NCBI GenBank assembly: GCA_013287585.1
Contig: JABDDN010000004.1
Location: 25,046 to 57,045 of the forward strand
Length of the DNA: 32,000 nucleotides
DNA from: Nitrososphaerota archaeon
Lineage (GTDB): Archaea; Thermoproteota; Nitrososphaeria; Nitrososphaerales; Nitrosopumilaceae
Direction: 5' to 3'
Program-made: the position numbers and the translations under genes
The notes under the pieces: generated by a model
Seen by the model: only the letters and a program-made list of their open reading frames with translations
The model's database searches: none
What the model was told of the DNA's origin: nothing
Shown here: positions 29 through 32,000 of the stretch, in pieces
Position numbering within the stretch: position 1 is the first letter of the stretch
Layout: each line of letters begins with the position of its first letter

Positions 29-1096
29 TTATTTTGATCTTTCGCTTAGCCATTGGCCAAGCTCGGTAAGAACTTTTTTTTGCGAAAATGAACTTGCTAT
101 CATTCCAACATGTCCAGTTGGATAAATTCTCATGGTTTTGTCCTCAGTTCCTACGGCATAGTATAGAGGCATACTACACTCAGGAGAAACCAAATGATCA
201 CCTACTGCAACCTGAATGAATATGGGCATTGTGATATTCTTGAGTGATACAAGTTGATTTCCAACATACATCTTGTCCTGAATTAGTAGATTTTCTTGGT
301 AAACGTCTTTTATCCATTGCCTGAAAAGTTCACCAGGTATAGATGGTGTATCATGTAACCATTTTTCAACACGTAGAAAATTGTCAACATAATTCTTATC
401 ATGTATATTTTTGAAAAAGTGTATGTATTTCTCTACTCCCTGTTCAAACGGTTTCAAAATGGAAAAGATATAGTACATGAATTCAGGTGGCATATTACCA
501 ATTGCTTTTACCATTTCATCTACATCCATGTGTTTAGCAAGATTTCCAACAACTGTAGTATCTTTTTTACCGTCAATCACAGGAGCAGTAACAACTAGAT
601 TTTTTACTTTGTCTGGATGAAGTGCAGAATAAACAGTAGCCAGAGTTCCACCTGTACAATAACCTTGCAGAGTGACTTTTTCTACATCTGCCTCGTCACA
701 TACAAAATCAATGCAGTTATCGATGTAACCATTAACGTAATCGTCAAAGCCTTGATATTTGTCAATATTAGTTGGGCTCCCCCAATCTATTAGATAGACA
801 TCAAATCCCTGATTTAAGAGATTTTTAATCCAACTTTTTTGTGGGTGAATATCCAAGATATGATATCTGTTTACCAATGCATACACAATAACAAGCGGAG
901 TTTTATGCTGTTTTTGAATTGAAGAATTGAAATGTAAAAGACGCACTTTATCTTCAGAATATGCAACATCATATGGAGTCATCTCAAGATTAATTTCATC
1001 AATTGCAGGCACCATTTTTGGAGCTTCGATCAAATTTTTATTAAATTTTAAAAATTCTTCAATTAGTATTGGATCAATTTTTAATTCATTTTCCAT
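29..1096 (-). CDS. phaC: Class III poly(R)-hydroxyalkanoate synthase, PhaC subunit
   Basis: 355-aa ORF with an alpha/beta-hydrolase layout. It carries the lipase-box-like G-Y-C-T-G-G (GxCxG) typical of PHA synthases, a later conserved Asp/His region (GDHLV, PTGHVGM), and the size expected of a class III PhaC. Its start overlaps the stop of the upstream PhaE-like ORF. Confidence 0.85.
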   Translation of the reverse strand: MENELKIDPILIEEFLKFNKNLIEAPKMVPAIDEINLEMTPYDVAYSEDKVRLLHFNSSIQKQHKTPLVIVYALVNRYHILDIHPQKSWIKNLLNQGFDVYLIDWGSPTNIDKYQGFDDYVNGYIDNCIDFVCDEADVEKVTLQGYCTGGTLATVYSALHPDKVKNLVVTAPVIDGKKDTTVVGNLAKHMDVDEMVKAIGNMPPEFMYYIFSILKPFEQGVEKYIHFFKNIHDKNYVDNFLRVEKWLHDTPSIPGELFRQWIKDVYQENLLIQDKMYVGNQLVSLKNITMPIFIQVAVGDHLVSPECSMPLYYAVGTEDKTMRIYPTGHVGMIASSFSQKKVLTELGQWLSERSK

Positions 1097-1700
1097 TGTG
1101 TATTACTCCAGATTTCCTTTCATTTTTTTCTAATTTACTTACTCTTTTTCGTAACGAGTGTAACTCTTTGTAAACTTCATTCAAATCATCTTTAGTTGGA
1201 ACATTTACAGATTCTAGTAACACAGCAAGCATATTATTCCAATGTTTAGAAAGTTCAACCTCACTTGATATTAATTTGCCAAAATTCTCTCCAAATTTTT
1301 CAGAATCAAAAAGTTGTGTAAACGCATTTTCAAATATGTCAATCCACACTCGTTTTGAAGATTCAATATGTTCTACATCATTTGGGATTTCCGGAATTTT
1401 GACATTAAATCTTTTTTGTGATTCGGTCCAAGTATCTGAAAGTTGTTTATAATATTCAGAAAGTTTAGTATTAAATTCTATAAGATCCTCATTTGCTTCT
1501 ATCATTTCAGTTGCCAGTTTTTTAGTTTGTAATGAAAATTTTCTCATGGGTCCTGCTAATATTAAAGCAGATGGTTTGCTTGAAATTAGATATGCCATAT
1601 CTGTCCAAAACAATGAAAGGTGCTTGAAATAATCTGCGGCTTCCTTAGGGTCTATTTTATTTTTAAATTCAGCACCAGATTCCATGCTAATCATATACAA
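1086..1700 (-). CDS. phaE: PHA synthase subunit PhaE-like
   Basis: 204-aa helical, coiled-coil-like ORF immediately upstream of phaC and overlapping it by 11 nt. Position and composition fit PhaE of class III synthases. The call rests mainly on synteny and general resemblance. Confidence 0.65.
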   Translation of the reverse strand: MYMISMESGAEFKNKIDPKEAADYFKHLSLFWTDMAYLISSKPSALILAGPMRKFSLQTKKLATEMIEANEDLIEFNTKLSEYYKQLSDTWTESQKRFNVKIPEIPNDVEHIESSKRVWIDIFENAFTQLFDSEKFGENFGKLISSEVELSKHWNNMLAVLLESVNVPTKDDLNEVYKELHSLRKRVSKLEKNERKSGVIHNGK

Positions 1701-6327: not shown

Positions 6328-6864
6328 TCACTCTAAAACCAGAATCAAATTATCCAAGAATTCTTGGATCCTAGTTTTTATTCCATCTATTACTTTTTTG
6401 AGTTCATTATTTGTAATACGTGCTTCATGAATTCGCAAGTTTTTTGATGCATGATCCATCCCATGTTTTGTTATGAATTCGTTAAATTTCTCAAGATACT
6501 GACTTGTGATTATAAGATGACCATTATTTTCAATTTCAGATATAGGTTGATAAATTATTGATTTTCCAAAAAATTCCAATATGTCAGGTGGTAGTGGCAC
6601 CACACTTCCATAAACATCATAAAATAACCAATTAGTTTTTCTATACGAGGGAAGGTTGTCATAAAATTCATCCTTAGTTTTGTATAAACCAAGATAACCG
6701 TTTAATTCTAAATCTATCCATGTATTTTTATCAGATATTCCTAGGTATTTACAGATGGTTTTACATGATTGCAAGATCTCATGTAACGATTTTTTCTCAT
6801 CCAAAAGTTCTATACTTACCGTTTTTGCTAATTTTAACGCCTCATCTTTTTTATTTTGACTCAA
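6328..6864 (-). CDS. AbiTii-like domain protein (abortive-infection-associated family), otherwise uncharacterised
   Basis: In this 178-aa ORF, the segment LHEILQSCKTICKYLGISDKNTWIDLELNGY....LPSYRKT matches my recollection of the AbiTii N-terminal domain signature (..LA.kLg...L..Wi..ELnGY...lPeYR). No effector motif was recognised in the C-terminal half. Confidence 0.5.
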   Translation of the reverse strand: MSQNKKDEALKLAKTVSIELLDEKKSLHEILQSCKTICKYLGISDKNTWIDLELNGYLGLYKTKDEFYDNLPSYRKTNWLFYDVYGSVVPLPPDILEFFGKSIIYQPISEIENNGHLIITSQYLEKFNEFITKHGMDHASKNLRIHEARITNNELKKVIDGIKTRIQEFLDNLILVLE

Positions 6865-6980
6865 GATATCAAACTAGTGTATTACTACCATGATTTTACT
6901 TTATCTTGTAGATACATATAGAAAAATTTTACAAAAATCATGATTTGGAGGCAAATCAGAGTAAAATAAAATTTAGGGTT

Positions 6981-7844
6981 TTAATAATTTTTTATTAAGA
7001 TTTCAGTATGTCCAGTTCTCTTCTTTGAATTTGAATTTATGAATCTATTTGTATTTATTTCTATTATATTATCAGAATATTCTGAGAATAATTCTATTAC
7101 TTCGTGTGATTTGGAATTTGAAAGCATGATATTACAACCTTTAGAATCAAGTTTTTTAAATTCGGTAAAGAGTCTTTCCTGATCTTTGTATCCAAAGTTA
7201 TCATTTGTATAGCTAGTAAAGTTTGCAGTAGAGCTCACTGGCTGATATGGTGGATCTAAATACACAAAATCATCTTTTTGTGCTCTCCTAAGAGCAGCAG
7301 TGAAATCTTCACACTTTATTGAAATTCCTTTTGATTGTAAAACGTGACTTAGTACCTGAAGGTTTTCTTTATTTACTATGTTTGGATTTACATACTTTCC
7401 TATCGGCACATTGAATTTCCCTTTACTGTTTACTCTGTACAAACCATTAAAACAAGTCTTGTTTAGAAATATGAGTCTTGAAACTTTATCAATCTGGTTT
7501 TTTGGATTACTGTCTCTTACTTGATAATAATATTCTTCAGAATTTTTAAAGTAATTTTCTGAATGTTCTTCGAGTGATATTACCAATTCATCAACTTTGT
7601 CACGAATTGTGACATATGATAGAATTAAAGTAGAATTCAAATCAGATACAAAACATTTTAGTTGAGAATTTTGAGATAACAGATATAACAAGACTGCTCC
7701 GCCCCCTAAAAATGGCTCAAAATACGTATCAAAATTTTTTGGAGTATGTTGTGATAGTGTTGGTAAAAGTTGTCTTTTTCCTCCTGCCCATTTTACAAAC
7801 GGCTTGGGTACAACAGATGTGATTTGTTTGTATTGCTGTTTCAA
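6981..7844 (-). CDS. dam: Dam-family (D12 class) N6-adenine DNA methyltransferase
   Basis: 287 aa with the KWAGGKRQLL motif, AdoMet motif EPFLGGGAV (FxGxG) and catalytic DPPY (VYLDPPYQP), in the alpha-class order typical of Dam/DpnIIA-like enzymes. Confidence 0.9.
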   Translation of the reverse strand: MKQQYKQITSVVPKPFVKWAGGKRQLLPTLSQHTPKNFDTYFEPFLGGGAVLLYLLSQNSQLKCFVSDLNSTLILSYVTIRDKVDELVISLEEHSENYFKNSEEYYYQVRDSNPKNQIDKVSRLIFLNKTCFNGLYRVNSKGKFNVPIGKYVNPNIVNKENLQVLSHVLQSKGISIKCEDFTAALRRAQKDDFVYLDPPYQPVSSTANFTSYTNDNFGYKDQERLFTEFKKLDSKGCNIMLSNSKSHEVIELFSEYSDNIIEINTNRFINSNSKKRTGHTEILIKNY

Positions 7845-7996: not shown

Positions 7997-8647
7997 TTAG
8001 TCCCACTTACTCCAAGCTGCCATCCATCTGTATGTCCACGTTGTCAATTTGCAGCCTAAAGCTGTCATTGTAACTGACAGGACAGCACCGGCACCCGCAC
8101 CTAGCGCGACCGGACTATCATAGAACTTTCCAACTTGGGGTTCTATTGGAGTCATGTATGGAGGCAATGTAGTCCTTGGGTATTTGAATGCAGTCTCTAG
8201 CGGATCGTCTATCGTAATGAGATTTATCATGTTGAACATTGGCAGAGACATTCCACAAAGTACACCGCCCATCAGAATGAGAGAGTGTTTGTTCTTCTTT
8301 GTTGCCCAATATACCAAATCCATCAGCATAGCCGACGGAATCCAAACTGGTACAACTATGAAGCTATATGGATATCCTAATGAGAACCACGCTCCTTTTG
8401 CAATCCACGTATACACCGTCATTATCAGTGCATAGTAAGTTGCAGTTCCTGGAACTCCAGTGAATGTAAGGTAGTACGCGGCACCGACAGCAAGCATGAG
8501 TGTCTGTGATACTGAAAATACCACAAATGAAGTCCACGCCCAGTCAGTATAGAATATGTAGTCTCCGGCATTGATGGTCAACAACGTAGAGTTGACTGCT
8601 ACCACTACTATAAACAAGTAGTGAGTACATCGTCTTAGCCAGACCAT
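7997..8647 (-). CDS. amoA: Ammonia monooxygenase subunit A (archaeal)
   Basis: This 216-aa polytopic membrane protein begins MVWLRRCTHYLFIVVVAVNSTLLTINAGDYIFYTDWAWTS and ends TWTYRWMAAWSKWD. As I recall them, this is nearly identical to Nitrosopumilus AmoA sequences. Confidence 0.98.
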   Translation of the reverse strand: MVWLRRCTHYLFIVVVAVNSTLLTINAGDYIFYTDWAWTSFVVFSVSQTLMLAVGAAYYLTFTGVPGTATYYALIMTVYTWIAKGAWFSLGYPYSFIVVPVWIPSAMLMDLVYWATKKNKHSLILMGGVLCGMSLPMFNMINLITIDDPLETAFKYPRTTLPPYMTPIEPQVGKFYDSPVALGAGAGAVLSVTMTALGCKLTTWTYRWMAAWSKWD

Positions 8648-8783
8648 TAGCCACTATGATAGATGCGGTGTATATAAAATTTTACGTAGGTATTGAGATC
8701 AGGTTTTATACAACATCATAATTGTTCATTTTTTACTTTCAAGTAAGAATCTAAAAATTAAAAGAAAAGGGGATTGAAAATTT

Positions 8784-9149
8784 CTATGCGCCGAAGAAGA
8801 AACAGTCAGTCAAGATTGTTGCTATTGCTATAGCTGCAATTATTCCTGCCATTGCACCATCATAGGTTCTTGCCTTCGGAGTACCTTCGGTTACAACCTT
8901 TACACATAGTAAATAACCAATGGCCTCTATAATTGTCAACACCGTTAGAGCAAAGTGTGCACTCGGTGGAGGATAAGCCCATGGATAATAGGTAACTGCT
9001 ACGGCAACACCTCCCCATGTTCCAATCCAACTGGCGACGAAAATGCCAGTGATTATTCCAAAATAATCTTCTGCACGTCTACCAATCATTTTGCTTACGT
9101 CGGAACTGGAAGCTCCGCCACCAGTACCAAATCCTTTTGGTAAAGTCAT
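8784..9149 (-). CDS. amoX: AmoX, small membrane protein encoded between amoA and amoC
   Basis: 121-aa hydrophobic ORF in the conserved amoA-amoX-amoC position of Nitrosopumilales. GC-richer composition like the flanking amo genes. Confidence 0.8.
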   Translation of the reverse strand: MTLPKGFGTGGGASSSDVSKMIGRRAEDYFGIITGIFVASWIGTWGGVAVAVTYYPWAYPPPSAHFALTVLTIIEAIGYLLCVKVVTEGTPKARTYDGAMAGIIAAIAIATILTDCFFFGA

Positions 9150-9230
9150 TTGGGTAATTATTAATCCGTATGCTTTTAAGTCTTTCTTAGATGAGAAGAA
9201 AATGCTTTACGCTTTAGGGATCTAAAAATA

Positions 9231-9256
9231 ATAAAAAATGCGCTTTTGCGCGCCTT
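9231..9256 (-). terminator. Terminator-like GC hairpin plus T-run downstream of amoC
   Basis: The minus strand reads ..GGCGCGCAAAAGCGCATTTTTTATTATTTTT immediately after the amoC stop (9260): a short GCGC/GCGC stem followed by oligo-T, the usual archaeal termination signal. Confidence 0.35.
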
Positions 9257-9259
9257 TTT

Positions 9260-9823
9260 CTATGGGATGGATCTACTGTACAATTTACCTTCTAGGGCCA
9301 TCTTGTACATTTCTGCAACATATGGGTTCTCACCTGGGGTTTCTGCTCCAAGCTCGACTAGTCGTGCATATACTCTAACTACATAGGCAAGTGCGCCCAT
9401 GAAAGCAACGACGACACCCATGTTAAACATCCAGTGGTTTGGTACTGCAAAGATTTCCTCTACATACCAGAAGTGCCACATTTCGTTTACACCAATTGTG
9501 AACATTGTTGCCAAATAACCAAGTATGGTCATCTTAAGGCCAGTGTTCATGGAGTTGTTTGGACCCCTCAGGATAGGTACTTTTCTGTCATACATTGCCA
9601 CTGATGCCCAACCTAATGGAAGAGCAATAAAGTGACTGTATAACCACCAGTGTGCTGGTGTAAATGCGCTATCTCTGATAGATGTTTGATGGAGTGATCC
9701 ATCAACGAAGTTGTCTACTTCCACTGAAGCAGCGATAGATCCCATTGCGATGACGATTAACCAGATCTTTTTCAGTCTGTGTATCTCGACTTCTTTTGGA
9801 ATCAGTGCGGGCATTTGTGCCAT
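9260..9823 (-). CDS. amoC: Ammonia monooxygenase subunit C (archaeal)
   Basis: 187-aa membrane protein with characteristic AmoC stretches (SIRDSAFTPAHWWLYSHF, NEMWHFWYVEE), sitting in the amo cluster. Confidence 0.97.
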   Translation of the reverse strand: MAQMPALIPKEVEIHRLKKIWLIVIAMGSIAASVEVDNFVDGSLHQTSIRDSAFTPAHWWLYSHFIALPLGWASVAMYDRKVPILRGPNNSMNTGLKMTILGYLATMFTIGVNEMWHFWYVEEIFAVPNHWMFNMGVVVAFMGALAYVVRVYARLVELGAETPGENPYVAEMYKMALEGKLYSRSIP

Positions 9824-9975
9824 ACACCATGTGATGAGATTTCAATATATAAAGCATGAGTAATAAATTAACAATTTTTTGTATATTTTATAGCAATATA
9901 TTAAACTATTATTAAAAATCATAACATAAATTTCTCTAAAAAGCAAGTAATTCCTATATAAAAAAAATGTGCCCT

Positions 9976-10013
9976 CAATGTTTATCATCAATGTTTATCA
10001 TTAGTTTTATCAT
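9976..10013. repeat. Tandem 13-bp repeat (CAATGTTTATCAT x2 plus a degenerate TAGTTTTATCAT) in the amoC/amoB divergent intergenic region
   Basis: Read directly: 9976-9988 and 9989-10001 are identical, and 10002-10013 is a related 12-mer. It lies about 90-125 nt upstream of the amoB ATG and about 150-190 nt upstream of the amoC start. Confidence 0.9.
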
Positions 10014-10099
10014 TATTTTTCTTATATTTGGATCAGATCACTTGTTATGAGGGTAAAACATATATCGTTGTTCTTTCTCTGATGCATTAGTTACGTGAT

Positions 10100-10666
10100 A
10101 TGGTAGATAAGAAATTAATCGTAGCAGCACTTGGTGTAATTGTAGCACTTGGAGCAGTTGGACCATCATTGGCTCAAATGTTCCAGCACGCAGAAGCACA
10201 TGGTGTACAGGCACAACTACAAAGTCGATTTGTTAGGATAGATGATGAAACATGGTCAAAACAATCTGTCCACACAGGTGACACCCTCACAGTATCAGGC
10301 AAATTCGTAAGTCTCGTACAAAGAGACCTAAGAGGCTGGTATACTGTATATGGTGACTCTCCTAATGCAGGTAACAGATGGGAGATTGTAGCAAGAGACC
10401 CACCTGGTAACGTTATAGACATTCCAGGAAACTCGGTCATTCCTTACACATTGACAATCAGGGCTCTAGAACCAGCAGTCTATCACATGCACACACAGCT
10501 TAACATCGCAAGTATAGGCCCAGGACTTGGTCCAGGACAAACAATAGTAGTCACTGGTGATCCAATCATAAAACCAATTCCATACACAAATGTAGCCTAT
10601 CAGTCGATAATAATTGGCGTGGGTTATGTTGTAACGTTTGCAACAAGACCGTGGCAAGTGATTTAA
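10100..10666 (+). CDS. amoB: Ammonia monooxygenase subunit B (archaeal short form)
   Basis: 188 aa with a signal/anchor peptide, then a ..AEAHGVQAQ.. N-terminal His region, a single cupredoxin-like domain and a C-terminal TM helix. It is inverted relative to amoAXC, as in Nitrosopumilus. Confidence 0.95.
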   Translation: MVDKKLIVAALGVIVALGAVGPSLAQMFQHAEAHGVQAQLQSRFVRIDDETWSKQSVHTGDTLTVSGKFVSLVQRDLRGWYTVYGDSPNAGNRWEIVARDPPGNVIDIPGNSVIPYTLTIRALEPAVYHMHTQLNIASIGPGLGPGQTIVVTGDPIIKPIPYTNVAYQSIIIGVGYVVTFATRPWQVI

Positions 10667-10772: not shown

Positions 10773-11036
10773 TTAACCAAACATACCCGTTGGCACATGA
10801 TTATATTCCAAAGTCCATTTTCTTACACAGTATACAGGCACGCCCACAGTTAGTGGCAAAGCAAAAATCACTCCAAATGGCCACGGAATGATCATTTGAA
10901 CGAAAGCATCAGCAAGAAAAATAATCAATTCCACAATCAACCCTTTTGTAAATTTTCTAATTCTGTAAAAAGCAATAAGCTGAGTTACAAAACTGGGTAT
11001 TATGGCCAGTATCATTTGACCACGCATACCAATCAT
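10773..11036 (-). CDS. Small hydrophobic membrane protein (about 3 predicted helices), unknown function
   Basis: 87-aa ORF convergent with amoB, strongly hydrophobic. No motif recognised. Confidence 0.5.
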   Translation of the reverse strand: MIGMRGQMILAIIPSFVTQLIAFYRIRKFTKGLIVELIIFLADAFVQMIIPWPFGVIFALPLTVGVPVYCVRKWTLEYNHVPTGMFG

Positions 11037-11115
11037 TTTTTACAATTGATAGTCAATGTATTTTTAGTTTTGTCTTATAGAAATTTTTAATGATGATCGT
11101 TTCTTTTAAAACGTA

Positions 11116-11331
11116 TTGAGGAACATTATTCTTAAAATTGCCATAATTCTAATAATAATAGCAGCCACAATACAAGTCATCCAAGTTCCTTCAGATCATA
11201 ATTCTCCAGTATTAGCTGTTTTTCAGAACCCAGATATAATTAATGCATTACCAATCATCCAATACATATTTGCCATAACTGGAATTTTTTTAATAGTTAA
11301 ATTCATCATAGATAAAATATTCAAAAAATAA
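11116..11331 (+). CDS. Small two-helix membrane protein, unknown function (TTG start)
   Basis: 71-aa ORF with two hydrophobic stretches (ILKIAIILIIIAATIQVI, IIQYIFAITGIFLIVKFII). The low-complexity AT-rich coding makes it uncertain. Confidence 0.4.
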   Translation: MRNIILKIAIILIIIAATIQVIQVPSDHNSPVLAVFQNPDIINALPIIQYIFAITGIFLIVKFIIDKIFKK

Positions 11332-12364: not shown

Positions 12365-12531
12365 AGATAAAGAGAGGTAAATCTACTCCTTTTTACCGTT
12401 TCCCAAGCTTGTACAAATATTACAAAGTAAACATGAAACAATTTGAAAGGATTGTCTGGAAAAATTCCTAAAGTATAATTGAAAATATGTTAAGATTTAA
12501 TAAAATTAAAATTATAGAAAGAAAAACCTTT

Positions 12532-14037
12532 CTAGGTTTCACTCATGTTGTAGGCTCTTTCTCCTACTTGTGAAATATCCAAACCTATTTCTTCTTCTTT
12601 AGGTGTGACTCTAACACCGCCAGGCCAAATCACATCTTGAATCTTCCAGATCAAGAGTGTTATACCAAAGGCCCATGTTGCTGCAAATCCTGCACCCATT
12701 GCATTGATTAGTTCTTGTTGTGGATTTCCAAAGAATAGACCGTCATGTCCATATGGATTAATGCGTTTTTCACTAAACGCACCAGTCAATAGCGCACCGA
12801 CAACACCACCCATACCGTGTACTGGCCAAGTGTCTAATGCATCATCTATTCTTCTCCTATTCTTTATTATCAAACAATAGAAGCATACTGTTGCACACGC
12901 AAACCCTACTATTATTGAAGCATAGCATCCTATGAATCCTGAAGCCGGCGTAATTGCAACTAGACCTGCTACAGCACCAGCTGACGCACCCATTGCACTA
13001 GTCTTTCCAGTATGAGCCCAAGCAAGGAATACCCACCACATTGCTGCAACTGCTGTAGCGATGTTGGTATTTTGGAATGCTTCTGTCTCCAAGAAACCTG
13101 CAAAGCCTGCACTTCCTGGGTTGAAACCGAACCAACCAAACCAAAGTAAAGTAGCACCTAACATAACTAACGGAATTGAATGTGGTTCAAATGGTGCTTT
13201 ACCATAACCTATTCTTCTTCCTAGGAACATTGCAGTTGCTAATCCTGCAAATCCTGATGTAATGTGAATGACTGTACCGCCTGCAAAGTCTTCTGTACCC
13301 AAAGTAAATAACCAACCTGGTGCACTTCCTTGACTTCCTAATGACCAGTTGGCATGACCTGCTACATCGTAAATAAATGTGGTCCATAGAACCACGTGTA
13401 TCATAAACGCACTCATCTTTACTCTATCAGCATAACCTGCTATAGCTAATGCTGGAGTAATTGCAGCAAACATGAGCTGGAACATCACATATGCCAAGTG
13501 TGGAATAGTCGGAGCATAAACATCTGCAGGTGCATTTGTTAGAACATTATTCAATCCTGCCCAATCTAAATTACCAATGAATCCATATGGATCTGCACTT
13601 GGACCAAACATTATGGCGTAACCCCATACCACCCATTGAATACTAACTATTGCATAAACCAAAAAGTTTTGTAAGATAACTGTTAATGCGTTCTTTCTTC
13701 TTGTCATACCACCGTATAGGAAACCTACACCACCAGGAGTCATTATCATGACGAATGATGCTGCTGCATACATGAAAGTGGTGTCTCCTGTATCAATACA
13801 TGGTGCAGAACTTCCTCCAAATGTACCGTTACCTGGTGGCATCATTGGAGAATTGCAGTGGAATTCAGATGTTTTGTTTGGATCAGCTAATTTGTTTAGA
13901 GGACCAAACTGTGCATGTGCATCTTGAACCGCTGTAAATCCTGCAACTGTAACAAGTAAAGCAGCCACTGCAAATACTAGTGGCCATTTATTTTTAGTGA
14001 CAAATTGAATTGATGTTGCTTCTAATGCTCCAGACAT
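12532..14037 (-). CDS. amt: Ammonium transporter (Amt/MEP family)
   Basis: 501 aa, about 11 TM helices, with typical Amt stretches (DFAGGTVIHITSGFAGL, GWFGFNPGSA, VHGMGGVVGALLTG). Confidence 0.97.
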   Translation of the reverse strand: MSGALEATSIQFVTKNKWPLVFAVAALLVTVAGFTAVQDAHAQFGPLNKLADPNKTSEFHCNSPMMPPGNGTFGGSSAPCIDTGDTTFMYAAASFVMIMTPGGVGFLYGGMTRRKNALTVILQNFLVYAIVSIQWVVWGYAIMFGPSADPYGFIGNLDWAGLNNVLTNAPADVYAPTIPHLAYVMFQLMFAAITPALAIAGYADRVKMSAFMIHVVLWTTFIYDVAGHANWSLGSQGSAPGWLFTLGTEDFAGGTVIHITSGFAGLATAMFLGRRIGYGKAPFEPHSIPLVMLGATLLWFGWFGFNPGSAGFAGFLETEAFQNTNIATAVAAMWWVFLAWAHTGKTSAMGASAGAVAGLVAITPASGFIGCYASIIVGFACATVCFYCLIIKNRRRIDDALDTWPVHGMGGVVGALLTGAFSEKRINPYGHDGLFFGNPQQELINAMGAGFAATWAFGITLLIWKIQDVIWPGGVRVTPKEEEIGLDISQVGERAYNMSET

Positions 14038-14101
14038 CTCTTCGAATTCTGTACTGCAACTATAAAAGGTATTTTATCCTAGAAATTTTTTTTTATGATA
14101 T
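14028..14101. repeat. Copy 1 of a perfect 74-bp direct repeat (amt first 10 nt + leader + TATA region)
   Basis: Identical base for base to 17432-17505 (offset 3404 bp). On the minus strand it reads ..AAAATACCTTTTATAGTTGCAGTACAGAATTCGAAGAGATGTCTGGAG. The TATA-like box (plus-strand coordinates 14057-14070) lies about 23 nt upstream of the ATG. Confidence 0.95.
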
Positions 14102-14231
14102 AATGTTAAATTTTAAAAAATTGCCTGATCGTGTACATATTAGAAATTAATTTTTAGAAAATTGATATATATCTTAAAATTATAAAAAATTTAAGAAAAA
14201 TTATTATACTAGACAAGTGGTTATAGTTTTT

Positions 14232-14396
14232 ATGTCAGAAGCAGGATGGGCAATATATATCGCAACCGCAGCTACCACTGCAATTACTATTGCAATCTAT
14301 TTTGCAGAACGCGCCTACAGGTACAAACGAGTAAAGGAAAACAAACATGCTGGAACATATGGATTCAACTTTGAATCTCATGGAACTCATGAATAG
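14232..14396 (+). CDS. Candidate unannotated 54-aa single-pass membrane peptide
   Basis: My own translation gives MSEAGWAIYIATAATTAITIAIYFAERAYRYKRVKENKHAGTYGFNFESHGTHE*. It has an ATG start and one hydrophobic helix followed by a basic stretch, and it is locally GC-richer than the flanking AT-rich spacer. It falls below the 60-aa ORF-track cut-off. Confidence 0.35.
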   Translation: MSEAGWAIYIATAATTAITIAIYFAERAYRYKRVKENKHAGTYGFNFESHGTHE

Positions 14397-14494
14397 AACA
14401 AACAGCAACAAATCCTATTTTTTGTAACGATATATGTAAAAATTATTTTTTCACAGATAGACTAATTTGAAGCAGTAAAACATCTACCAAGATA

Positions 14495-14977
14495 GTGAGA
14501 GTAAATTTAGAAGAAGATGAACATATGGTTGCCGCATTACCGAAAATCTGGGCAATTGTACCTGGATTAAGGGGGTTTTTCAATAAAAGCAAGGAAGGGA
14601 TTCTGGTTAAAACAAACAAAAATCTAATCTTTGTTCCACGATATCTGTATGTTTCACCAAAAGAAAGGGAAAAATATTTTGGTGAAGATAAAGTGAAAGT
14701 AACACAGCTATGGGACTATTCCGAAACTCAACTTGATGAAGACATTTCTGAGAATCCAAAAAGCTGGATTATGCCTTTAGATGCCATTATTGAGGTTAAC
14801 CAAATTACATTACGAAAGGTAAATTTTATGAGAATAAAATTTTCTAAAGACGGAAAGGAAAAAATGTATGATTTTGTAATAGCTAAAAGTGTGACCAACT
14901 ATCCGATTAGGCAACCACTTTTGTATTATAATGTAGATTGGACTGCGTGGATGGATTTGTTAAAATCACGTATTTGA
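14495..14977 (+). CDS. Hypothetical protein (possibly PH/GRAM-like fold)
   Basis: 160-aa ORF with a GTG start (alternative ATG at 14525). No motif recognised. Confidence 0.5.
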   Translation: MRVNLEEDEHMVAALPKIWAIVPGLRGFFNKSKEGILVKTNKNLIFVPRYLYVSPKEREKYFGEDKVKVTQLWDYSETQLDEDISENPKSWIMPLDAIIEVNQITLRKVNFMRIKFSKDGKEKMYDFVIAKSVTNYPIRQPLLYYNVDWTAWMDLLKSRI

Positions 14978-15034
14978 AATTTTATTTTAATTTCCTAGAT
15001 TTAAAATTATAAAAATAATATAAAAAATTGAAAT

Positions 15035-15511
15035 CTAATTATGTTCCTCTTTTGTACCCTGAAGAATCTTTCTAGATCTACTAACAATAAAATCTAGTTC
15101 GGCATCAGATTCATTTAAGAATTGTAAATTTGTAATTCTTTTTGTATATTTGAATATCTCAAGTTCGTATGAATCACCTTTTGGTTTGTATAATGCCAAA
15201 CCAAAGTTAGCAGCTCCATCATAATCTTCTTTAAATCTCTTATAATTGTCAGATATTTTGAGAGATTTTAAGAAAACCCATGTTGCAAGTATAATACGAG
15301 ATTCACAATATAGAACAAATTCAAATGAATCCTCTTTTTCAACAAATCTAATTTTAATCTCATCATCTGGCCAATATTTTATAACTTTGTTCCATATTGT
15401 AGGAATTTTTTTCCTTTCATCAAAAATTAAAAGAATCCTAGGCCTCACATCATAGAAATGATAACCCACACCGAGAAAATCATCATACCAATTTATCTTT
15501 GAATCAGCCAA
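15035..15511 (-). CDS. Hypothetical protein
   Basis: 158-aa ORF with a TTG start. No motif recognised. Confidence 0.45.
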   Translation of the reverse strand: MADSKINWYDDFLGVGYHFYDVRPRILLIFDERKKIPTIWNKVIKYWPDDEIKIRFVEKEDSFEFVLYCESRIILATWVFLKSLKISDNYKRFKEDYDGAANFGLALYKPKGDSYELEIFKYTKRITNLQFLNESDAELDFIVSRSRKILQGTKEEHN

Positions 15512-15651
15512 ACCTATCTTGGCACGTCATTGCTCATATTTAATGATTAAATATTTCATCGTAGATTTTTATTTTTTTAAAATCACTTGTAAAAATTTTG
15601 ATCACATGACTACCTGTTATTTTTATATAAGATTAACATAGTTGTAAATCA

Positions 15652-15876
15652 TTGAGAGTTTCTAAAACAAAACCACTAGATGAGCTTCTCAAGATGAATA
15701 AAGAAGAGTTATTTGAATATCTAAAAGAATCTGAGAGTTCCATGCAATCAACAGATTCTATTGAAATAGTTCCTTTTGAACATGGAACAAAGATACTTTA
15801 TTATCACAAAGGCCAAACCAAACCATACAAGACTCGTGCATATCTTAACAAGGTTGAAGATTCAGATCTATTGTAG
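15652..15876 (+). CDS. Hypothetical small protein
   Basis: 74-aa ORF with a TTG start, immediately upstream of the 253-aa membrane protein. Weak support. Confidence 0.3.
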   Translation: MRVSKTKPLDELLKMNKEELFEYLKESESSMQSTDSIEIVPFEHGTKILYYHKGQTKPYKTRAYLNKVEDSDLL

Positions 15877-15917
15877 ATAATAGAAGTACATAATTCTGAC
15901 GATGTGCATTATATTAC

Positions 15918-16679
15918 ATGGTAAAGGTAAAATCAAATACTGAGAGATGGGCGTTCATTGATACAATTCAAGATTGGTTTTTCCCAAAGAGTAGATTTTG
16001 GAGTTCAATTAGTTTATTTTCATTTTTTTCCCTAATCATTTTACAAATTATTTTTTCCGTTGCAAGTGGCATCAACCCAAGAGCCAGACAAGAAACAGAT
16101 TTTCTAATACTACCGCTTTTAACTTTATTTGTATTTAGTATTTTTTGGAGAGGGTCAATACCAACTTTTCTTTCCTTAACTGGTTCGTTGATGATGTATG
16201 CAGGTATGTATTATATTCAAGCAAAATATTTTGATCTGCAAAATTTACCTCCAACAATTGCAAATAGATTAGGGTATGGCACTATTTCTGAGAATCATTT
16301 TCATATAGACCAATACGCTCAACTTTATTTTCTTGCAGGAATATTTTTTCTCACATTATGTTTGGTAATATCTCTCAAACCATCATTTTTTAGAGCCAGG
16401 GGAGCAAAATATTCACCATATCCTATTTGGGAGAGTGAAGATTCAAAAATAATGTCAGGTAAAAATTCTGTGAGATTAATTCCTGTTTCAAGCTTGCTTA
16501 ATTTTGCAGAACAACAAATAGCTACTACATACAAATACATCACACTAATGATTGATGGAACTATCTATTTTGTTTCTCCAGATGATTGGATACCACAAGG
16601 ATCTAACATCATCAGAGACAAAGAAACAGGTTCTCTTATTGGAATACCTAAGGTTCCTGATGGATTTAATATTTGGTAA
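15918..16679 (+). CDS. Hypothetical polytopic membrane protein with a soluble C-terminal domain
   Basis: 253 aa with about 4 hydrophobic helices in the first 160 residues, then a roughly 90-aa polar domain. No motif recognised. Confidence 0.6.
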   Translation: MVKVKSNTERWAFIDTIQDWFFPKSRFWSSISLFSFFSLIILQIIFSVASGINPRARQETDFLILPLLTLFVFSIFWRGSIPTFLSLTGSLMMYAGMYYIQAKYFDLQNLPPTIANRLGYGTISENHFHIDQYAQLYFLAGIFFLTLCLVISLKPSFFRARGAKYSPYPIWESEDSKIMSGKNSVRLIPVSSLLNFAEQQIATTYKYITLMIDGTIYFVSPDDWIPQGSNIIRDKETGSLIGIPKVPDGFNIW

Positions 16680-16691
16680 AAAAATTTAAAT

Positions 16692-17441
16692 CTAGAAAAT
16701 AGAATCTTTTGGTTTTAATTCGCGCCACTTGCCACGGGCCCAGAATCCCCATTTTTGCTTGTCTTCTGATGGATAATAACACTTTTCGTTATGTGCACAG
16801 CCCATGCATCTTGTCGATGGTTCTAGAGCTGGTATCACATTATTATTTAATAACGTATTAAGAATACGTGCTCTTCGTTTAGTTTCACCAAAAAGTTTCT
16901 CACTTTTTGGAACGATGAATTCCATTTCATTGCCATCTTTATCAAAATACACTATAACACCCTCTGGTTTTTCAAACATGTGTAGGTATGAATTTAATTG
17001 CATAAAATGCTCAGCATGTGGCATCTCTGGCAATTCTTCGGCTGTTCTAAACATCATTACTACATCATCCTCTACTCTATCTGCACGACCAACTAGTTTT
17101 AGTTTAGAATCAATTTCAATTATTCCCTCAGATGGTCTTTCTAATACACTTAGAGCACTTTTTTCCATTAATGTAGACATCATTTGTTTATGTGTTCGTT
17201 CTGCAGGAGATTTACGATCAAGGTATGCACTTCTGAGACATCCACTAACCTCATCTACAGAGATTTTACTTTCATCGTTTAAATTTGGATTAATAACGGC
17301 AAATACTTGCTCAATGACATCATAGACATCAACTTTAGCTGGAGCGTCGCCTGCAGCACGATAATTTTCAATTCCTTCTTTAATTTTATCTTGAACTTTT
17401 CCTAAAATTTTTCCTTTTTGTACTTTCTGTACTCCAGACAT
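16692..17441 (-). CDS. Cas4/RecB-like PD-(D/E)xK superfamily protein with a 4-Cys (Fe-S type) signature
   Basis: In this 249-aa ORF, C68 (SGCLRSAYL) plus C212-x2-C215-x5-C221 match the Cas4/AddB C...CxxCx5C pattern. It also has a GRAD121 motif-II-like Asp and Q148LNSY152 (QxxxY). I could not find a convincing (D/E)xK lysine (region VVMMFRTAEEL). No CRISPR array or cas genes are nearby. Confidence 0.6.
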   Translation of the reverse strand: MSGVQKVQKGKILGKVQDKIKEGIENYRAAGDAPAKVDVYDVIEQVFAVINPNLNDESKISVDEVSGCLRSAYLDRKSPAERTHKQMMSTLMEKSALSVLERPSEGIIEIDSKLKLVGRADRVEDDVVMMFRTAEELPEMPHAEHFMQLNSYLHMFEKPEGVIVYFDKDGNEMEFIVPKSEKLFGETKRRARILNTLLNNNVIPALEPSTRCMGCAHNEKCYYPSEDKQKWGFWARGKWRELKPKDSIF

Positions 17442-17505
17442 CTCTTCGAATTCTGTACTGCAACTATAAAAGGTATTTTATCCTAGAAATTTTTTTTTAT
17501 GATAT
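17432..17505. repeat. Copy 2 of the perfect 74-bp direct repeat (supplies start codon, leader and TATA region of the Cas4-like gene)
   Basis: Identical to 14028-14101. The flanks diverge immediately on both sides (g vs a at the inner edge, a vs t at the outer edge). Confidence 0.95.
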
Positions 17506-17585: not shown

Positions 17586-17930
17586 ATGAAAAAAATTGAA
17601 GCAGTAGTCCCAGCATCGAAAGTTGAAGCAGTTGCTTCTGCAATACTAGAAACAGGAATTGGAGGTATGACAATTTCCGATACAAAGGGAAGAGGTATAC
17701 TTGAAAGACCAGTGTTTGCGAGTGGAAGAGGAACTGGTGCATATAGACCTGCATTTAATGTAAATGCAACAATAATGGTCGTATCAAAAGATGATCTGGT
17801 AGACAAAATTGTGGAAAAGATTCTTTCTGCTGCAAGTACAGGGGCAACAGGTGAAGGAAAAATCTTCATAACTGACGTAGCAGAAACCATAGATATCGGA
17901 TCTAAAAAACGTGGAGATTCCACACTTTAA
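17586..17930 (+). CDS. glnB: P-II family nitrogen regulatory protein
   Basis: 114 aa starting MKKIEAVV.., with GGMTISDTKGRG.. (T-loop base) and TGEGKIFITDV (the ATP-binding GDGKIF-like motif). Length and pattern are those of GlnB/GlnK. Confidence 0.9.
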   Translation: MKKIEAVVPASKVEAVASAILETGIGGMTISDTKGRGILERPVFASGRGTGAYRPAFNVNATIMVVSKDDLVDKIVEKILSAASTGATGEGKIFITDVAETIDIGSKKRGDSTL

Positions 17931-29150: not shown

Positions 29151-29816
29151 TTAAATTCTGATACTTGGATTTTCTTTCTTAAGTTTTTCCCAGTCAGCTA
29201 AAAAGTTCTTTAGGCCAACATCAGTTAGTGGATGTTTAAGCATCTTTCCAAGTACATCCGGCGGTAGGGTCACAACATCAGCCCCAATCTTTGCAGCGTC
29301 AACTACATGCATTGGGTGCCTAATACTTGCAACCAAAATTTGTGTATTAAATTTGTAATTTTGGAATACTTCGTGTATCTCTTTTATCAAATGCATACCA
29401 TCTTGTCCATTATCATCTAGTCTTCCTATAAACGGGCTAACATATTTTGCTCCTGCTTTTGCAGCTAATATCGCTTGATTTACTGAAAATACCAATGTCA
29501 CATTAACTGGTATTCCTTCGTTGGTTAAGATCCTACAAGCCTTTAGACCCTCAGGAGTCATTGGGCATTTAACAACTACATTGTTTCCATATTTTCGGAG
29601 TCTATGTCCTTCATCAATCATGCCCAAAGTTTCTGTACTTACAACTTCTAAGCTTACGTCTCCTTTGATTATTCTTACAATTTCTTCCATTGTTTTTTGT
29701 GGATCACCGCCTTCTTTTGCTAAAAGTGAAGGGTTTGTAGTAATGCCATCAACAAGGCCCATTTCATTGTACATTTTTATTGCAACAAGATTTGCAGTGT
29801 CAAGGAATATCTTCAT
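29151..29816 (-). CDS. tal: Transaldolase (short Tal/Fsa type)
   Basis: 221 aa: MKIFLDTANL....GITTNPSLL.. with catalytic Lys context (VVVKCPMT) and ..YVSPFIGRLDD.., typical of subfamily 3B transaldolases. Confidence 0.9.
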   Translation of the reverse strand: MKIFLDTANLVAIKMYNEMGLVDGITTNPSLLAKEGGDPQKTMEEIVRIIKGDVSLEVVSTETLGMIDEGHRLRKYGNNVVVKCPMTPEGLKACRILTNEGIPVNVTLVFSVNQAILAAKAGAKYVSPFIGRLDDNGQDGMHLIKEIHEVFQNYKFNTQILVASIRHPMHVVDAAKIGADVVTLPPDVLGKMLKHPLTDVGLKNFLADWEKLKKENPSIRI

Positions 29817-30781
29817 CTGGTTTTACTCCTGATATCTTTCACCGAATTAGCTATATTAATTGATGTAATACCATGTTTTTGTAGTAATAGTGGAACTTCG
29901 TTATCTCGTGCTGATTCACCAAATTTATCCTGAACTCCAATTCGTCTCATCGGTACAGGATATGTTTCAGTAACTACCTCTGATACAGCTGAACCAAATC
30001 CAGCAAGTATATTATGTTCTTCACAGGTTACAATTCCTCCAGTCTCACGTGCGGCCTTTTCTATTAGTGATGAATCAATTGGTTTGATTGAGAACATATC
30101 CAAAACTCTACATGAGATACCCTCTTGTTTAAGAGAGTCTGCAGCATCCAATGCCATTTGAACCGTAATTCCACACGCTGCAATAGTACAATCAGAACCA
30201 TCTCGCAATACAATTCCTTTTCCAATTTCAAATTCCTGTGATTCTGAGTGTATAAGTGGAGTCTTTGATCTTGTCATCCTCATATAAAATGGACCGTGAA
30301 TTTGCGAGATGATCCAAGTCAATTTAGAAACTGCCACAGTGTCAGCAGGAATCAAAACGTTGACATTTGGAATTACTCTCATAATTGCTATATCTTCAAT
30401 TTGTTGATGTGAACCTCCATCAGCTCCGACACTTAGACCACCATGCGAAACTACCATTTTCACATTTAGTCCTTTTTTGCCATTTCGTGACGGATATGCT
30501 ATTGCATTTCGTATTTGATCTACACAACGACCAGGCAAAAATATTGCATATGTACTAGCAAACGGAACTTTCCCTTCATTTGCTAGACCAGCTGCAATAG
30601 AAACCAGATTCGCTTCTGCTATACCTACATTAAAAAACCTATTTGGAAATTTTTTTCCAAAAGGTTTTGTTTTTAATGAATCAGTAGTATCGGCACCTAC
30701 TACCACCACGTTAGAATTTTCTTCCCCAACTTTGATAAGAGTTTCACCATATACAGTACGCATATCGGTCATTTCAGTCAT
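29813..30781 (-). CDS. Transketolase, C-terminal subunit (pyrimidine-binding + C-terminal domains)
   Basis: 322 aa: ..RTVYGETLIKVGEEN..VVVGADTTDS..FFNVGIAEANLVSIAAGLA.. and ..SHGGLSVGADGGSHQQIEDIAIMR.., as in split archaeal transketolases. ATGA overlaps link it to both neighbouring genes. Confidence 0.9.
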   Translation of the reverse strand: MTEMTDMRTVYGETLIKVGEENSNVVVVGADTTDSLKTKPFGKKFPNRFFNVGIAEANLVSIAAGLANEGKVPFASTYAIFLPGRCVDQIRNAIAYPSRNGKKGLNVKMVVSHGGLSVGADGGSHQQIEDIAIMRVIPNVNVLIPADTVAVSKLTWIISQIHGPFYMRMTRSKTPLIHSESQEFEIGKGIVLRDGSDCTIAACGITVQMALDAADSLKQEGISCRVLDMFSIKPIDSSLIEKAARETGGIVTCEEHNILAGFGSAVSEVVTETYPVPMRRIGVQDKFGESARDNEVPLLLQKHGITSINIANSVKDIRSKTR

Positions 30782-32000
30782 ACAAAGCCAGCCTCCTTTG
30801 CGATTTGTAATAGCTCTGATTTTTTCTTACCTACTTCGTGTAAATCTATCCATTTGTTTACGAGTTCTGTACCGCCAAGACTATGTGCCTTTTGTATCAA
30901 GAGTTTTCTTCGTCCATGTAATATTTTTTTCCTAAATTCAGATATGGTAGATCTAACATCTTTTTGGCCAATTATGGCACTTCCACCTACAAAGACTCGT
31001 GCTCCATCTAAAAAGCAAGATTCCACGTTTGAAAGATCAACACCGCCATCAGCCTCTATAAATCCTGAAAAATTCTGTTTTGTTAGTAATTTGACTATCC
31101 TATGAGTTTTCTCGTGAGAGGATTCGATGTATTTTTGACCTGATTTTCCAGGAATTACCGACATAAGTATGAGTTGATCTAGGTCAGAGATGAATTTATC
31201 AGTCCATTGTGGAAGTTCAGTATCTGGGTTTATTGCAAGTCCAACGCTGACTTCGTTTGTTCGTAAGATATCATGAATCTCACCAAAACTTGATTCGTCA
31301 CATACTTCAGCATGTACAGTGATAATGTCACTTCCAGCTTCAACATAATCTCTAACATGTTTTACTGGATCAGTTATCATCAAATGTGAATCAAACGGTA
31401 TTGAAGTAATTGGTCTTAGTTCTTTTATTTTATTATGATCAAAAGTCTTGTTTGGAACAAACAATCCATCCATCACATCAAGATGAATAAAATCAGCACG
31501 TCCTTGAGCTGCTCGTTTTACTTCGTTTCCTAGATTTGTCATATCACCCGCAATTATTGATGGAGCAATGAGAAACTGACAATCAAGTTCAAGATCAATT
31601 ATAGGTGCAATTTTTGGATTTGGTGCAACCCCATGCCATTTAGGATTGTCTTCCATGTGTTCAACACCTTTTCCTTTGATAGTACGAGCTACAACTATTG
31701 ATGGCGTTCCTTTGGTTTGTTGAACAGATCTAATTGCTTTGATTATTTGTTCAATTCTATGACCATCTATTTCTAAAACATTCCATCCAAAAGATCTCCA
31801 TTTGTCTCCTGTTTTCCATCTTGCGGCATTTTTCCACATCTCTGAAATGTCATCACCTGTCAGCTCTTCATCAAGTGGCATTACTCTTTCAGTATAATCA
31901 TCTTGTTGTATGAAATTTCTATCTAAAAACGCTGTAAGATTATCAAGTTTGTATTTAGATGCAGTCATGGCAGCTTCCCAAACTTGTCCCTCATCTGATT
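30778..32000 (-). CDS. Transketolase N-terminal subunit (partial, continues past the window edge) with an embedded ribulose-phosphate 3-epimerase domain
   Basis: The reading frame stays open upstream of the ORF-track Met (..SDEGQVWEAAMTASKYKLDNL.. is internal transketolase sequence). After ..KGKGVEHMEDNPKWHGVAP, a complete Rpe domain follows (LIAPSIIAGDM..HLDVMDGLFVPN..DSHLM..LMSVIPGKSGQ..EADGGV..VGGSAI; about 30919-31575). A 46-aa tail comes after it. Confidence 0.85.
   Translation of the reverse strand, partial: SDEGQVWEAAMTASKYKLDNLTAFLDRNFIQQDDYTERVMPLDEELTGDDISEMWKNAARWKTGDKWRSFGWNVLEIDGHRIEQIIKAIRSVQQTKGTPSIVVARTIKGKGVEHMEDNPKWHGVAPNPKIAPIIDLELDCQFLIAPSIIAGDMTNLGNEVKRAAQGRADFIHLDVMDGLFVPNKTFDHNKIKELRPITSIPFDSHLMITDPVKHVRDYVEAGSDIITVHAEVCDESSFGEIHDILRTNEVSVGLAINPDTELPQWTDKFISDLDQLILMSVIPGKSGQKYIESSHEKTHRIVKLLTKQNFSGFIEADGGVDLSNVESCFLDGARVFVGGSAIIGQKDVRSTISEFRKKILHGRRKLLIQKAHSLGGTELVNKWIDLHEVGKKKSELLQIAKEAGFV

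Follow-up and report, generated by a model that had tools for sequence, protein, structure and literature searches.

Here, we analyse a 32,000-nucleotide stretch of DNA (the window) from a Nitrososphaerota archaeon (GenBank assembly GCA_013287585.1, contig JABDDN010000004.1, positions 25,046 to 57,045), which belongs to the core chromosome of a Nitrosotalea-related ammonia oxidiser from soil. In this window, the promoter and first codons of an ammonium transporter gene (amt) recur, letter for letter over 74 bp, at a gene encoding a Cas4-like protein (cas4). Very probably, this identity came about through recurrent ectopic gene conversion between two old paralogous promoters, which here ran from amt to cas4. 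Four things that are directly seen carry this reading: the repeat itself, a conserved synteny around it, a conserved promoter module at both genes, and a mosaic and concerted pattern of differences between the copies.

Two identical promoter copies at amt and cas4

The two copies of the repeat, at positions 14028-14101 and 17432-17505, are identical base for base and in direct orientation, as had been read from the letters in an earlier note on this DNA, with a start-to-start distance of 3404 bp. Beyond the 74-bp exact tract, similarity extends over 85 bp at 96%. By arithmetic from a guanine-cytosine (GC) content of ~33%, the chance expectation for an exact 74-mer repeat in 32 kb is ~5e-33, and a search of both strands of the 32-kb window revealed no third copy. 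Likewise, a 19-nt core (GATAAAATACCTTTTATAG) has just two sites in the window even with up to three mismatches permitted, while shuffles predict 0.02.

Copy 1 (14028-14101, minus strand) consists of the amt promoter module and the first 10 nt of the amt coding sequence, and copy 2 (17432-17505, minus strand) of the corresponding parts of cas4, in an amt-type sequence that marks it as the probable recipient of the conversion. Read on the minus strand, each copy runs ATATCAT...GATAAAATACC-TTTTATAG, then 22 nt, then ATGTCTGGAG (that is, in the order ATATCATAAAAAAAAATTTCTAGGATAAAATACC-TTTTATAG, 22 nt, ATGTCTGGAG). The TATA-like box and following spacer of the earlier note are thus in place, the spacer measuring 22 nt instead of about 23 nt. 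The final 10 nt of each copy are the first codons of Amt (MSGA...) and of the Cas4-like protein (MSGV...), and the gene calls agree with the common starts that had been remarked upon.

At the upstream end of the module lies a 26-bp near-perfect inverted repeat, TATCATAAAA-N6-TTTCTAGGATA, which is a putative operator and has the same sequence in the amt copy (14075-14100, minus strand) and the cas4 copy (17479-17504, minus strand). Its half-sites agree at 9 of 10 positions, with ATAaTATCATAAAA pairing with TTtTAgGATA. Downstream of AAATACC, which resembles a B recognition element (BRE), is the TTTTATAG TATA box of amt (14060-14067, minus strand; -30 to -23 from the ATG), and that of cas4 (17464-17471, minus strand) has the same conserved spacing. 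The 22-nt spacer between TATA box and ATG, likely the initially melted region, is found at 14038-14059 (minus strand) for amt and is gene-specific in other lineages, whereas at cas4 (17442-17463, minus strand) the comparison of lineages indicates that the amt version has been written over it.

In Nitrosotalea-related lineages, the module takes the form TATCATAAAA-N6-TTTTAGGATA, AAATACC, a TTTTATAG TATA box, 22-24 nt, and ATG. Both genes of four such relatives (L087, L092, L095, and L097) display ATATCATAAAAA-N10-(G)GATAAAA(T/C)ACCTTTTATAG, followed by 22-23 nt and ATG. The module at the two genes is old, being shared by every Nitrosotalea-related lineage sampled. The centre of the TATA box is ~26-27 nt upstream of the start codon, and the spacing is 22-24 nt at 79 of 79 sites among the matches listed in a metagenome scan for the 19-nt core. 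TATA-like boxes starting at about -30 from the start codon are also found at amoA, amoC, S3Ae, and p74 (the 74-aa open reading frame, ORF, described below). From the position of the box at -30 to -23, we infer that transcription of both genes probably begins at the ATG or right beside it, giving leaderless mRNAs; the segment previously called a leader would then belong to the melted region of the promoter rather than to a 5′ untranslated region.

Probable gene conversion between the two promoters

Two allelic types, an amt type and a cas4 type differing at 12 sites, occur in the window's clade. When the amt and cas4 promoter copies were compared with each other over 77 nt, the window showed a single difference (the 77 nt include the 74-bp exact tract), and near-identical pairs, each with a different sequence, were found in at least four lineages, namely the window, L135, L151, and L186. 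In L135, there are no differences in 77, and both copies carry a private G at -51 and a private G at +5. L151 has 2 differences in 77, and its two copies share the private substitutions C-20, A-19, and G-10, and L186 has 1 difference in 77 and is a mosaic of the two types with no private substitutions. Private substitutions common to both copies are thus found in the window (A at -10), L135, and L151. Partly homogenised pairs, with 6 differences in 77 each, are those of L196, in which G-51 and C-3 are shared by both copies, and of L092. Unconverted pairs with amt type on amt and cas4 type on cas4 (9-13 differences) are retained in L199, L122, and L208. Mosaics are seen in L186, L196, L135, and L187. 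Moreover, cas4-type bases are found on the amt side in L151 and L092, which implies transfer in both directions. Taken over these comparisons, orthologous copies differ by about 7-8 sites, and the four converted lineages by 0-2 between their own copies. On the upstream side the tracts run out at -64 to -67 and on the downstream side at +4 to +10, which is as far as the two loci are homologous.

A close relative with an unconverted pair, L199, shares ~90% identity with the window across 13 kb. The cas4 copy of the window is amt-type at the diagnostic sites and there equals the amt copy of L199, including a private A at -10. In numbers, the cas4 promoter of the window differs from L199 amt at 2 of 77 sites and from L199 cas4 at 11 of 77. 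The amt type is already found on cas4 in every contig with 96-100% identity to the window. The event in the window would accordingly read as a full-tract amt-to-cas4 conversion that took place after the L199 lineage had split off, L199 being unconverted, and before the 96-100%-identical strains diversified. An older transfer in the same direction, in the ancestor of the clade, is indicated by both genes of the window's clade sharing an amt-like spacer of 22 nt (1 nt shorter) and the start ATGTC.

The earlier note had suggested, as one of its readings, that a nitrogen-responsive promoter was recently copied or gene-converted onto the Cas4-like gene. Of this, the gene conversion and its direction, amt to cas4, stand. 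A new promoter capture it was not, as the Cas4-like gene had a homologous module in all related lineages, and what took place is the homogenisation of two old promoters. The nitrogen responsiveness of the promoter is an assumption.

Copies are closer within genomes than between them, with mean distances of 5.56 of 77 and 8.24 of 77, respectively (permutation P = 0.00015), in line with gene conversion. A number of points limit this reading. The permutation comparison is uncorrected for shared ancestry among genomes. In the clade with a 23-nt spacer, concerted evolution at the variable centre of the palindrome does not reach significance (P = 0.08); conversion is demonstrated for the window's clade only and is weak in this other clade. 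The metagenome set was chosen by an exact 19-mer, so conservation of that 19-mer is partly a matter of ascertainment. Finally, metagenome contigs are consensus assemblies, so that an apparent mosaic might in principle stem from a chimeric contig; against this, the same copy patterns recur in contigs from different samples (L081-L086).

Alternatively, purifying selection alone might hold both promoters at one optimum with no recombination between them. The 43-bp part that covers operator, BRE, and TATA box is indeed nearly invariant across lineages at both genes, and both copies are unchanged among the 96-100%-identical strains. However, the 22-nt spacer and first codons vary by lineage and, in L087, L095, and L097, by gene (amt ...ctacgaaaagATGTCAGAG and cas4 ...ttt.aaagaATGACGGAA, with a consensus of ...ctacgaaaagATGTC(A/G)GA(G/A) for amt and ...ttt.aaagaATGAC(G/C)GAA for cas4), from which it follows that these positions are not tightly constrained. 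It is there that the copies of the window, L135, L151, and L186 agree, three of them with lineage-private changes in both copies. Moreover, the close relative L199 tolerates 13 differences, and the 1-nt shorter spacer is common to both genes of the clade. Altogether, we consider selection by itself a quite unlikely explanation.

Gene order between amt and the P-II homologue

The amt gene (12532-14037, minus strand; PF00909, E 1e-105; TIGR00836, 394 bits) is an Amt2-type high-affinity orthologue, near which are amoA, amoX, amoC, and amoB (7997-10666). The P-II homologue (17586-17930, plus strand; PF00543, E 4e-18) is divergently placed and transcribed away from cas4. It is remote from GlnB and GlnK, scoring 66 bits in Pfam and 64 bits in NCBIfam against a cut-off of 202. 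Together with the weak PD-(D/E)XK, phrog_1706, and TIGR00372 matches of the Cas4-like protein, these Pfam matches support the three gene calls of the earlier note. As for the conserved intervening block of five ORFs (14217-16679), which had been described as of unknown function, none of its members has a match in Pfam, PHROGs, or NCBIfam. It comprises a 59-aa membrane ORF (14217-14396, plus strand), a 160-aa ORF (14495-14977, plus strand), a 158-aa ORF (15035-15511, minus strand), a 74-aa ORF (15652-15876, plus strand), and a variably present 253-aa membrane ORF (15918-16679, plus strand).

For synteny, we used contigs with Cas4-like homologues, obtained through exact-protein look-ups, and a metagenome motif scan. 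The homologues are thaumarchaeal throughout (54-92% identity). In relatives, the order is P-II, the divergent Cas4-like gene, ORFs of ~74, ~158, ~160, and ~54 aa, and Amt, and the order of the window is kept in L087 (72% Cas4-like identity), L092 (81%), L095 (70%), and the Nitrosotalea metagenome-assembled genome L097 (64%). All 37 sampled loci that hold both Amt and the Cas4-like gene also have the 158- and 160-aa ORFs, and P-II lies at most 600 bp from the Cas4-like start in 46 of 48 sampled loci. Even in rearranged or more distant lineages (L096, L216, L218, and L089), the Cas4-like gene is still near amt, the two being divergent neighbours in L216, and the pair has thus stayed together despite several independent rearrangements. 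The gene arrangement is already known from Nitrosotalea devanaterra, in which amt2 (NDEV_1784) is near amoA (NDEV_1777), the same position as that of amt in the window, and a P-II homologue is found near, and not adjoining, this high-affinity amt2 (PMC4836417). The premise that amt and P-II belong side by side, on which the earlier note had leaned, does not apply here, as they are separated already in that genome.

Several further features of the neighbourhood were observed. The 253-aa ORF, a multi-pass membrane protein, is the sole variable member of the block, being found in 21 of the 37 two-gene loci and absent from L087, L092, and L097. Outside the repeat, a separate conserved element resembling a promoter (TTTAATAAAAGC) belongs to the P-II homologue. 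In L216 (from farmland soil), a 181-bp intergenic region between amt and the Cas4-like gene (6820-7000) has a single TTATCATAAAAA element, and a stand-alone gene for an AsnC-type ligand-binding domain (78 aa; 10927-11163) is located at the edge of the block. The ORFs of ~55 (membrane), 160, 158, and 74 aa accompany Amt and the Cas4-like gene despite changes in order and orientation (L216 8552-10813, L218 2839-4406, and L217 6-3520, as compared with 14217-15876 in the window). That these small ORFs travel with the two genes through rearrangements suggests one functional neighbourhood.

This conserved synteny bears on another of the earlier readings, in which the repeats are the footprint of an integration, that is, a 3.4-kb mobile element or provirus inserted in the 5′ end of amt and duplicating it as attL and attR. 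In its favour, the direct repeats bracket mostly hypothetical ORFs plus a Cas4-like gene, a gene type frequent in archaeal viruses, and the GC content of the block (0.27-0.34) is slightly under that of the neighbouring genes. However, relatives down to 64% Cas4-like identity hold the same genes between amt and P-II, and the promoter module is already at both ends there. The proposed check, whether amt and P-II are adjacent in relatives without the block, turned out against insertion, with the block core kept in all 37 two-gene loci and an empty site, or deleted form, with P-II adjoining amt in 0 of the 48 sampled P-II loci. Pfam, PHROGs, and NCBIfam gave no integrase or further mobility-related domain for the block, and there is no tRNA at the borders of the repeat, the sole tRNA being ~9 kb off. 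No relative of the Cas4-like protein was found among 2.9 million viral contigs, and low GC is usual for weakly expressed and intergenic DNA of the window. An integrated element is thus a highly improbable source of the repeat. Four viral matches to the motif were rejected as chance coding matches, being without the palindrome.

Distribution of the promoter module

In ~264 kb of related thaumarchaeal loci, the palindrome (with up to three mismatches) is restricted to these two promoters. In the metagenome scan, the 19-nt core gave 132 occurrences among the matches listed. Of these, 47 precede Cas4-like genes and 32 precede amt, in each case at 22-24 nt from the ATG, and the remaining 53 have no Amt or Cas4-like ORF downstream. 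About 40 of these 53 were inspected and set aside as chance coding matches in unrelated organisms that lack the palindrome, the exception being a truncated cas4-type copy (L215). Among the matches listed, conservation of the half-site ATAaTATCATAAAA, which the search pattern did not include, reaches or approaches 100% across 72 unique sequences. Conservation of the dyad symmetry goes further than a basal promoter would require. No third member of the regulon was found with the exact 19-mer among the matches listed, nor with the palindrome in the ~264 kb, searches that diverged sites could escape. In the distant lineages L094, L096, and L216-L218, the TATA box and its spacing are kept and the palindrome is degraded. 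Separately, in the clade with the 23-nt spacer, we noticed an extra half-site-like TATCATAAAAT ~50-60 nt upstream of the amt palindrome (L087, at ~12460-12480, and L119, L107, L153, and L172), not seen upstream of the Cas4-like gene, and possibly an additional, amt-specific binding site.

A short, sharp-bordered repeat with an internal inverted repeat might also suggest a small mobile promoter cassette, similar to a miniature inverted-repeat transposable element (MITE), that landed upstream of two genes. This we regard as hardly credible, given that the related loci and the metagenome matches listed show just two copies per genome, invariably at these two genes, that the borders are without terminal inverted repeats or target-site duplications, and that the copy terminates within coding sequences.

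The least probable source of the repeat, with next to no chance of being right, is an assembly artefact, which the earlier note had listed as a third reading: one promoter falsely doubled or a mis-join, as the sharp-bordered perfect identity resembles a collapsed or mis-joined repeat, is contradicted by L083, a metagenome contig of a 97%-identical strain from an independent sample, which was assembled at k=141, exceeding the length of the repeat, and spans both copies as exact 74-mers with different flanks, and by >20 more contigs from other species that span both promoters. Altogether, the exact-protein look-up of the Cas4-like protein gave six metagenome contigs 96-100% identical to the window.

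The Cas4-like partner protein

The gene that shares its promoter with amt (16692-17441, minus strand) encodes a 249-aa protein of PD-(D/E)XK type, which profile and fold comparisons characterise as Cas4-like, with four invariant cysteines of the iron-sulfur (Fe-S) kind and a degenerate E-x-K. Its matches to PD-(D/E)XK, phrog_1706, and TIGR00372 are weak (for the last, 32.8 bits versus a cut-off of 65). In the family alignment, C68, C212, C215, and C221 are invariant, and the GRAD and Q-x-x-Y motifs are kept. The family profile matches SSO0001 (PDB ID: 4IC1) with an E of 1.6e-5, and Foldseek gave the same structure as top match (E 3e-9) for an AlphaFold model with a mean predicted local distance difference test (pLDDT) score of 63. 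In the profile alignment to 4IC1, the catalytic glutamate of E-x-K is replaced by Met, Ile, Val, or Leu, and the lysine is often Arg, which leaves the family without the D...E-x-K catalytic triad of PD-(D/E)XK. Judged by these substitutions, nuclease activity is doubtful. No cas genes or CRISPR were found near the Cas4-like gene in any annotated locus. We also observed an invariant extra N-terminal motif in the family, GIENYRAA.DA..K.D.

Proposed mechanism and its implications

According to our proposal, the two 74-bp copies are paralogous archaeal promoters of an amt2-type gene and of a Cas4-like gene 3.4 kb upstream in the same orientation. One regulator would bind the palindrome upstream of BRE and TATA box at both genes and thereby co-regulate them, as suggested by the common module. 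The modules (~45-77 bp each, direct, and 2.5-3.4 kb apart) would pair from time to time in the course of homologous recombination or repair, with non-reciprocal transfer of sequence between them, by a pathway of ectopic gene conversion that we infer from the pattern of the copies. In the window, the amt version would have been copied over the Cas4-like version across the whole homology, from -64 to +10, and similar conversions, in both directions and with partial tracts, would have occurred independently in sister lineages. With a crossover between the copies, the Cas4-like gene and the block would be lost, an outcome seen in none of the 48 sampled P-II loci. In itself, the process is ordinary concerted evolution acting on an unusually short unit.

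A further step, which we put forward as speculative and rather unlikely, is that the palindrome module defines a dedicated two-gene regulon, in which amt is coupled to a probably nuclease-dead Fe-S Cas4-like protein that is part of nitrogen or ammonium sensing or control. If this were true, the Cas4-like protein might be, for instance, a redox- or nitric oxide-sensitive DNA-binding factor on the shared palindrome, and neither a DNA-repair nor a CRISPR enzyme, and the 158-, 160-, and ~55-aa ORFs would be further parts of one functional unit. The transporter concerned would be the most highly expressed ammonium transporter. To our knowledge, no nitrogen regulator has been identified in ammonia-oxidising archaea, and we know of no account of how their ammonium uptake is regulated. 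Our search of the literature gave nothing specific on an amt promoter, its regulator, or a link between Cas4 and amt in these archaea, nor did it bring up a publication dealing with the shared module, the palindrome, or the conversion.

In practical terms, the 26-bp palindrome in front of a high-affinity amt could serve as bait for a regulator of ammonium uptake, and co-expression of the widely conserved Cas4-like Fe-S protein with the transporter is predicted. The locus also offers a clean natural case in which a promoter of ~77 bp is converted between unrelated archaeal genes, rewriting the N-terminal residues of both proteins. For annotation, it cautions that a perfect direct repeat around hypothetical genes need not signal a mobile element.

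Other genes of the window

In gene content, the window includes PhaC and PhaE, tRNA-Thr, a PAS histidine kinase, AbiTii, a Dam-like methyltransferase, and amoA-amoX-amoC-amoB, followed after the amo cluster by a ConA-like protein, Amt, the five ORFs of the block, the Cas4-like gene, and the P-II homologue, beyond which are ribosomal protein S15, a DHH phosphoesterase, SerRS, and S3Ae. The polyhydroxyalkanoate synthase genes of PhaC and PhaE type are at the edge of the window (29-1700, minus strand). Adjoining amoA are genes for a Dam-like N6-adenine methyltransferase (PF02086) and an AbiTii-domain protein (6328-7844, minus strand), and the same pair adjoins amoA in L087 (18749-20207), which makes this a conserved arrangement rather than a strain-specific defence islet. 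Near the other end, a 396-aa ORF (30778-31968, minus strand) combines a ribulose-phosphate 3-epimerase domain with a short N-terminal transketolase fragment and adjoins a separate C-terminal half of transketolase (29813-30781); this may reflect the fusion of a split transketolase to the epimerase, or an error in the called start codon.

Comparison with known systems

As regards its promoters, the locus resembles activator-dependent archaeal ones. Archaeal BRE/TATA promoters with an upstream palindromic site for a regulator are known from Lrp/AsnC-type or Ptr2-type activation, and here, too, ~26-27 nt lie between the centre of the TATA box and the presumed start, and the box is directly preceded by a conserved A-rich element that abuts a dyad-symmetric site. 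One of the two genes serves nitrogen uptake. However, the NrpR operator of methanogen nitrogen genes is GGAA-N6-TTCC, and the palindrome described here differs in sequence and is placed upstream of the TATA box, not over or downstream of it.

The Cas4-like protein is similar to Cas4 (SSO0001, PDB ID: 4IC1) in its fold, its four Fe-S cysteines, and its GRAD and Q-x-x-Y motifs, and departs from it in having no CRISPR or cas neighbours, the additional GIENYRAA.DA motif, a degenerate E-x-K, and a TIGR00372 score below the cut-off. Like the canonical amtB-glnK operon, the locus has an Amt gene and a P-II homologue in one neighbourhood. Here, in contrast, the two do not form an operon: 3.5 kb and a change of strand separate P-II from amt, P-II and the Cas4-like gene diverge from each other, and this arrangement is conserved. 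The P-II, moreover, is a distant homologue far under the GlnB/GlnK equivalog cut-offs. With the attL and attR sites of integrated archaeal elements, the locus has in common two identical direct repeats around a few kilobases of hypothetical genes, but it is without an integrase, a tRNA target, presence/absence polymorphism, or viral relatives, and the repeat predates the lineage.

The closest parallels are with systems of ectopic gene conversion. The same process is familiar from tufA and tufB in Salmonella and from the multiple amoCAB copies of ammonia-oxidising bacteria. In prokaryotes, it also underlies the concerted evolution of rRNA operons (PMC8022953). Common to these systems and to the promoters of amt and the Cas4-like gene are copies that are closer within a genome than orthologues are between genomes, mosaic tracts, sharp borders where homology ends, private substitutions shared by both copies, and unconverted sister lineages. 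In the case of the window, the converted unit is ~77 bp of promoter plus three codons in place of a duplicated gene or operon, and the proteins of donor and recipient share no homology beyond the converted N-terminal residues.

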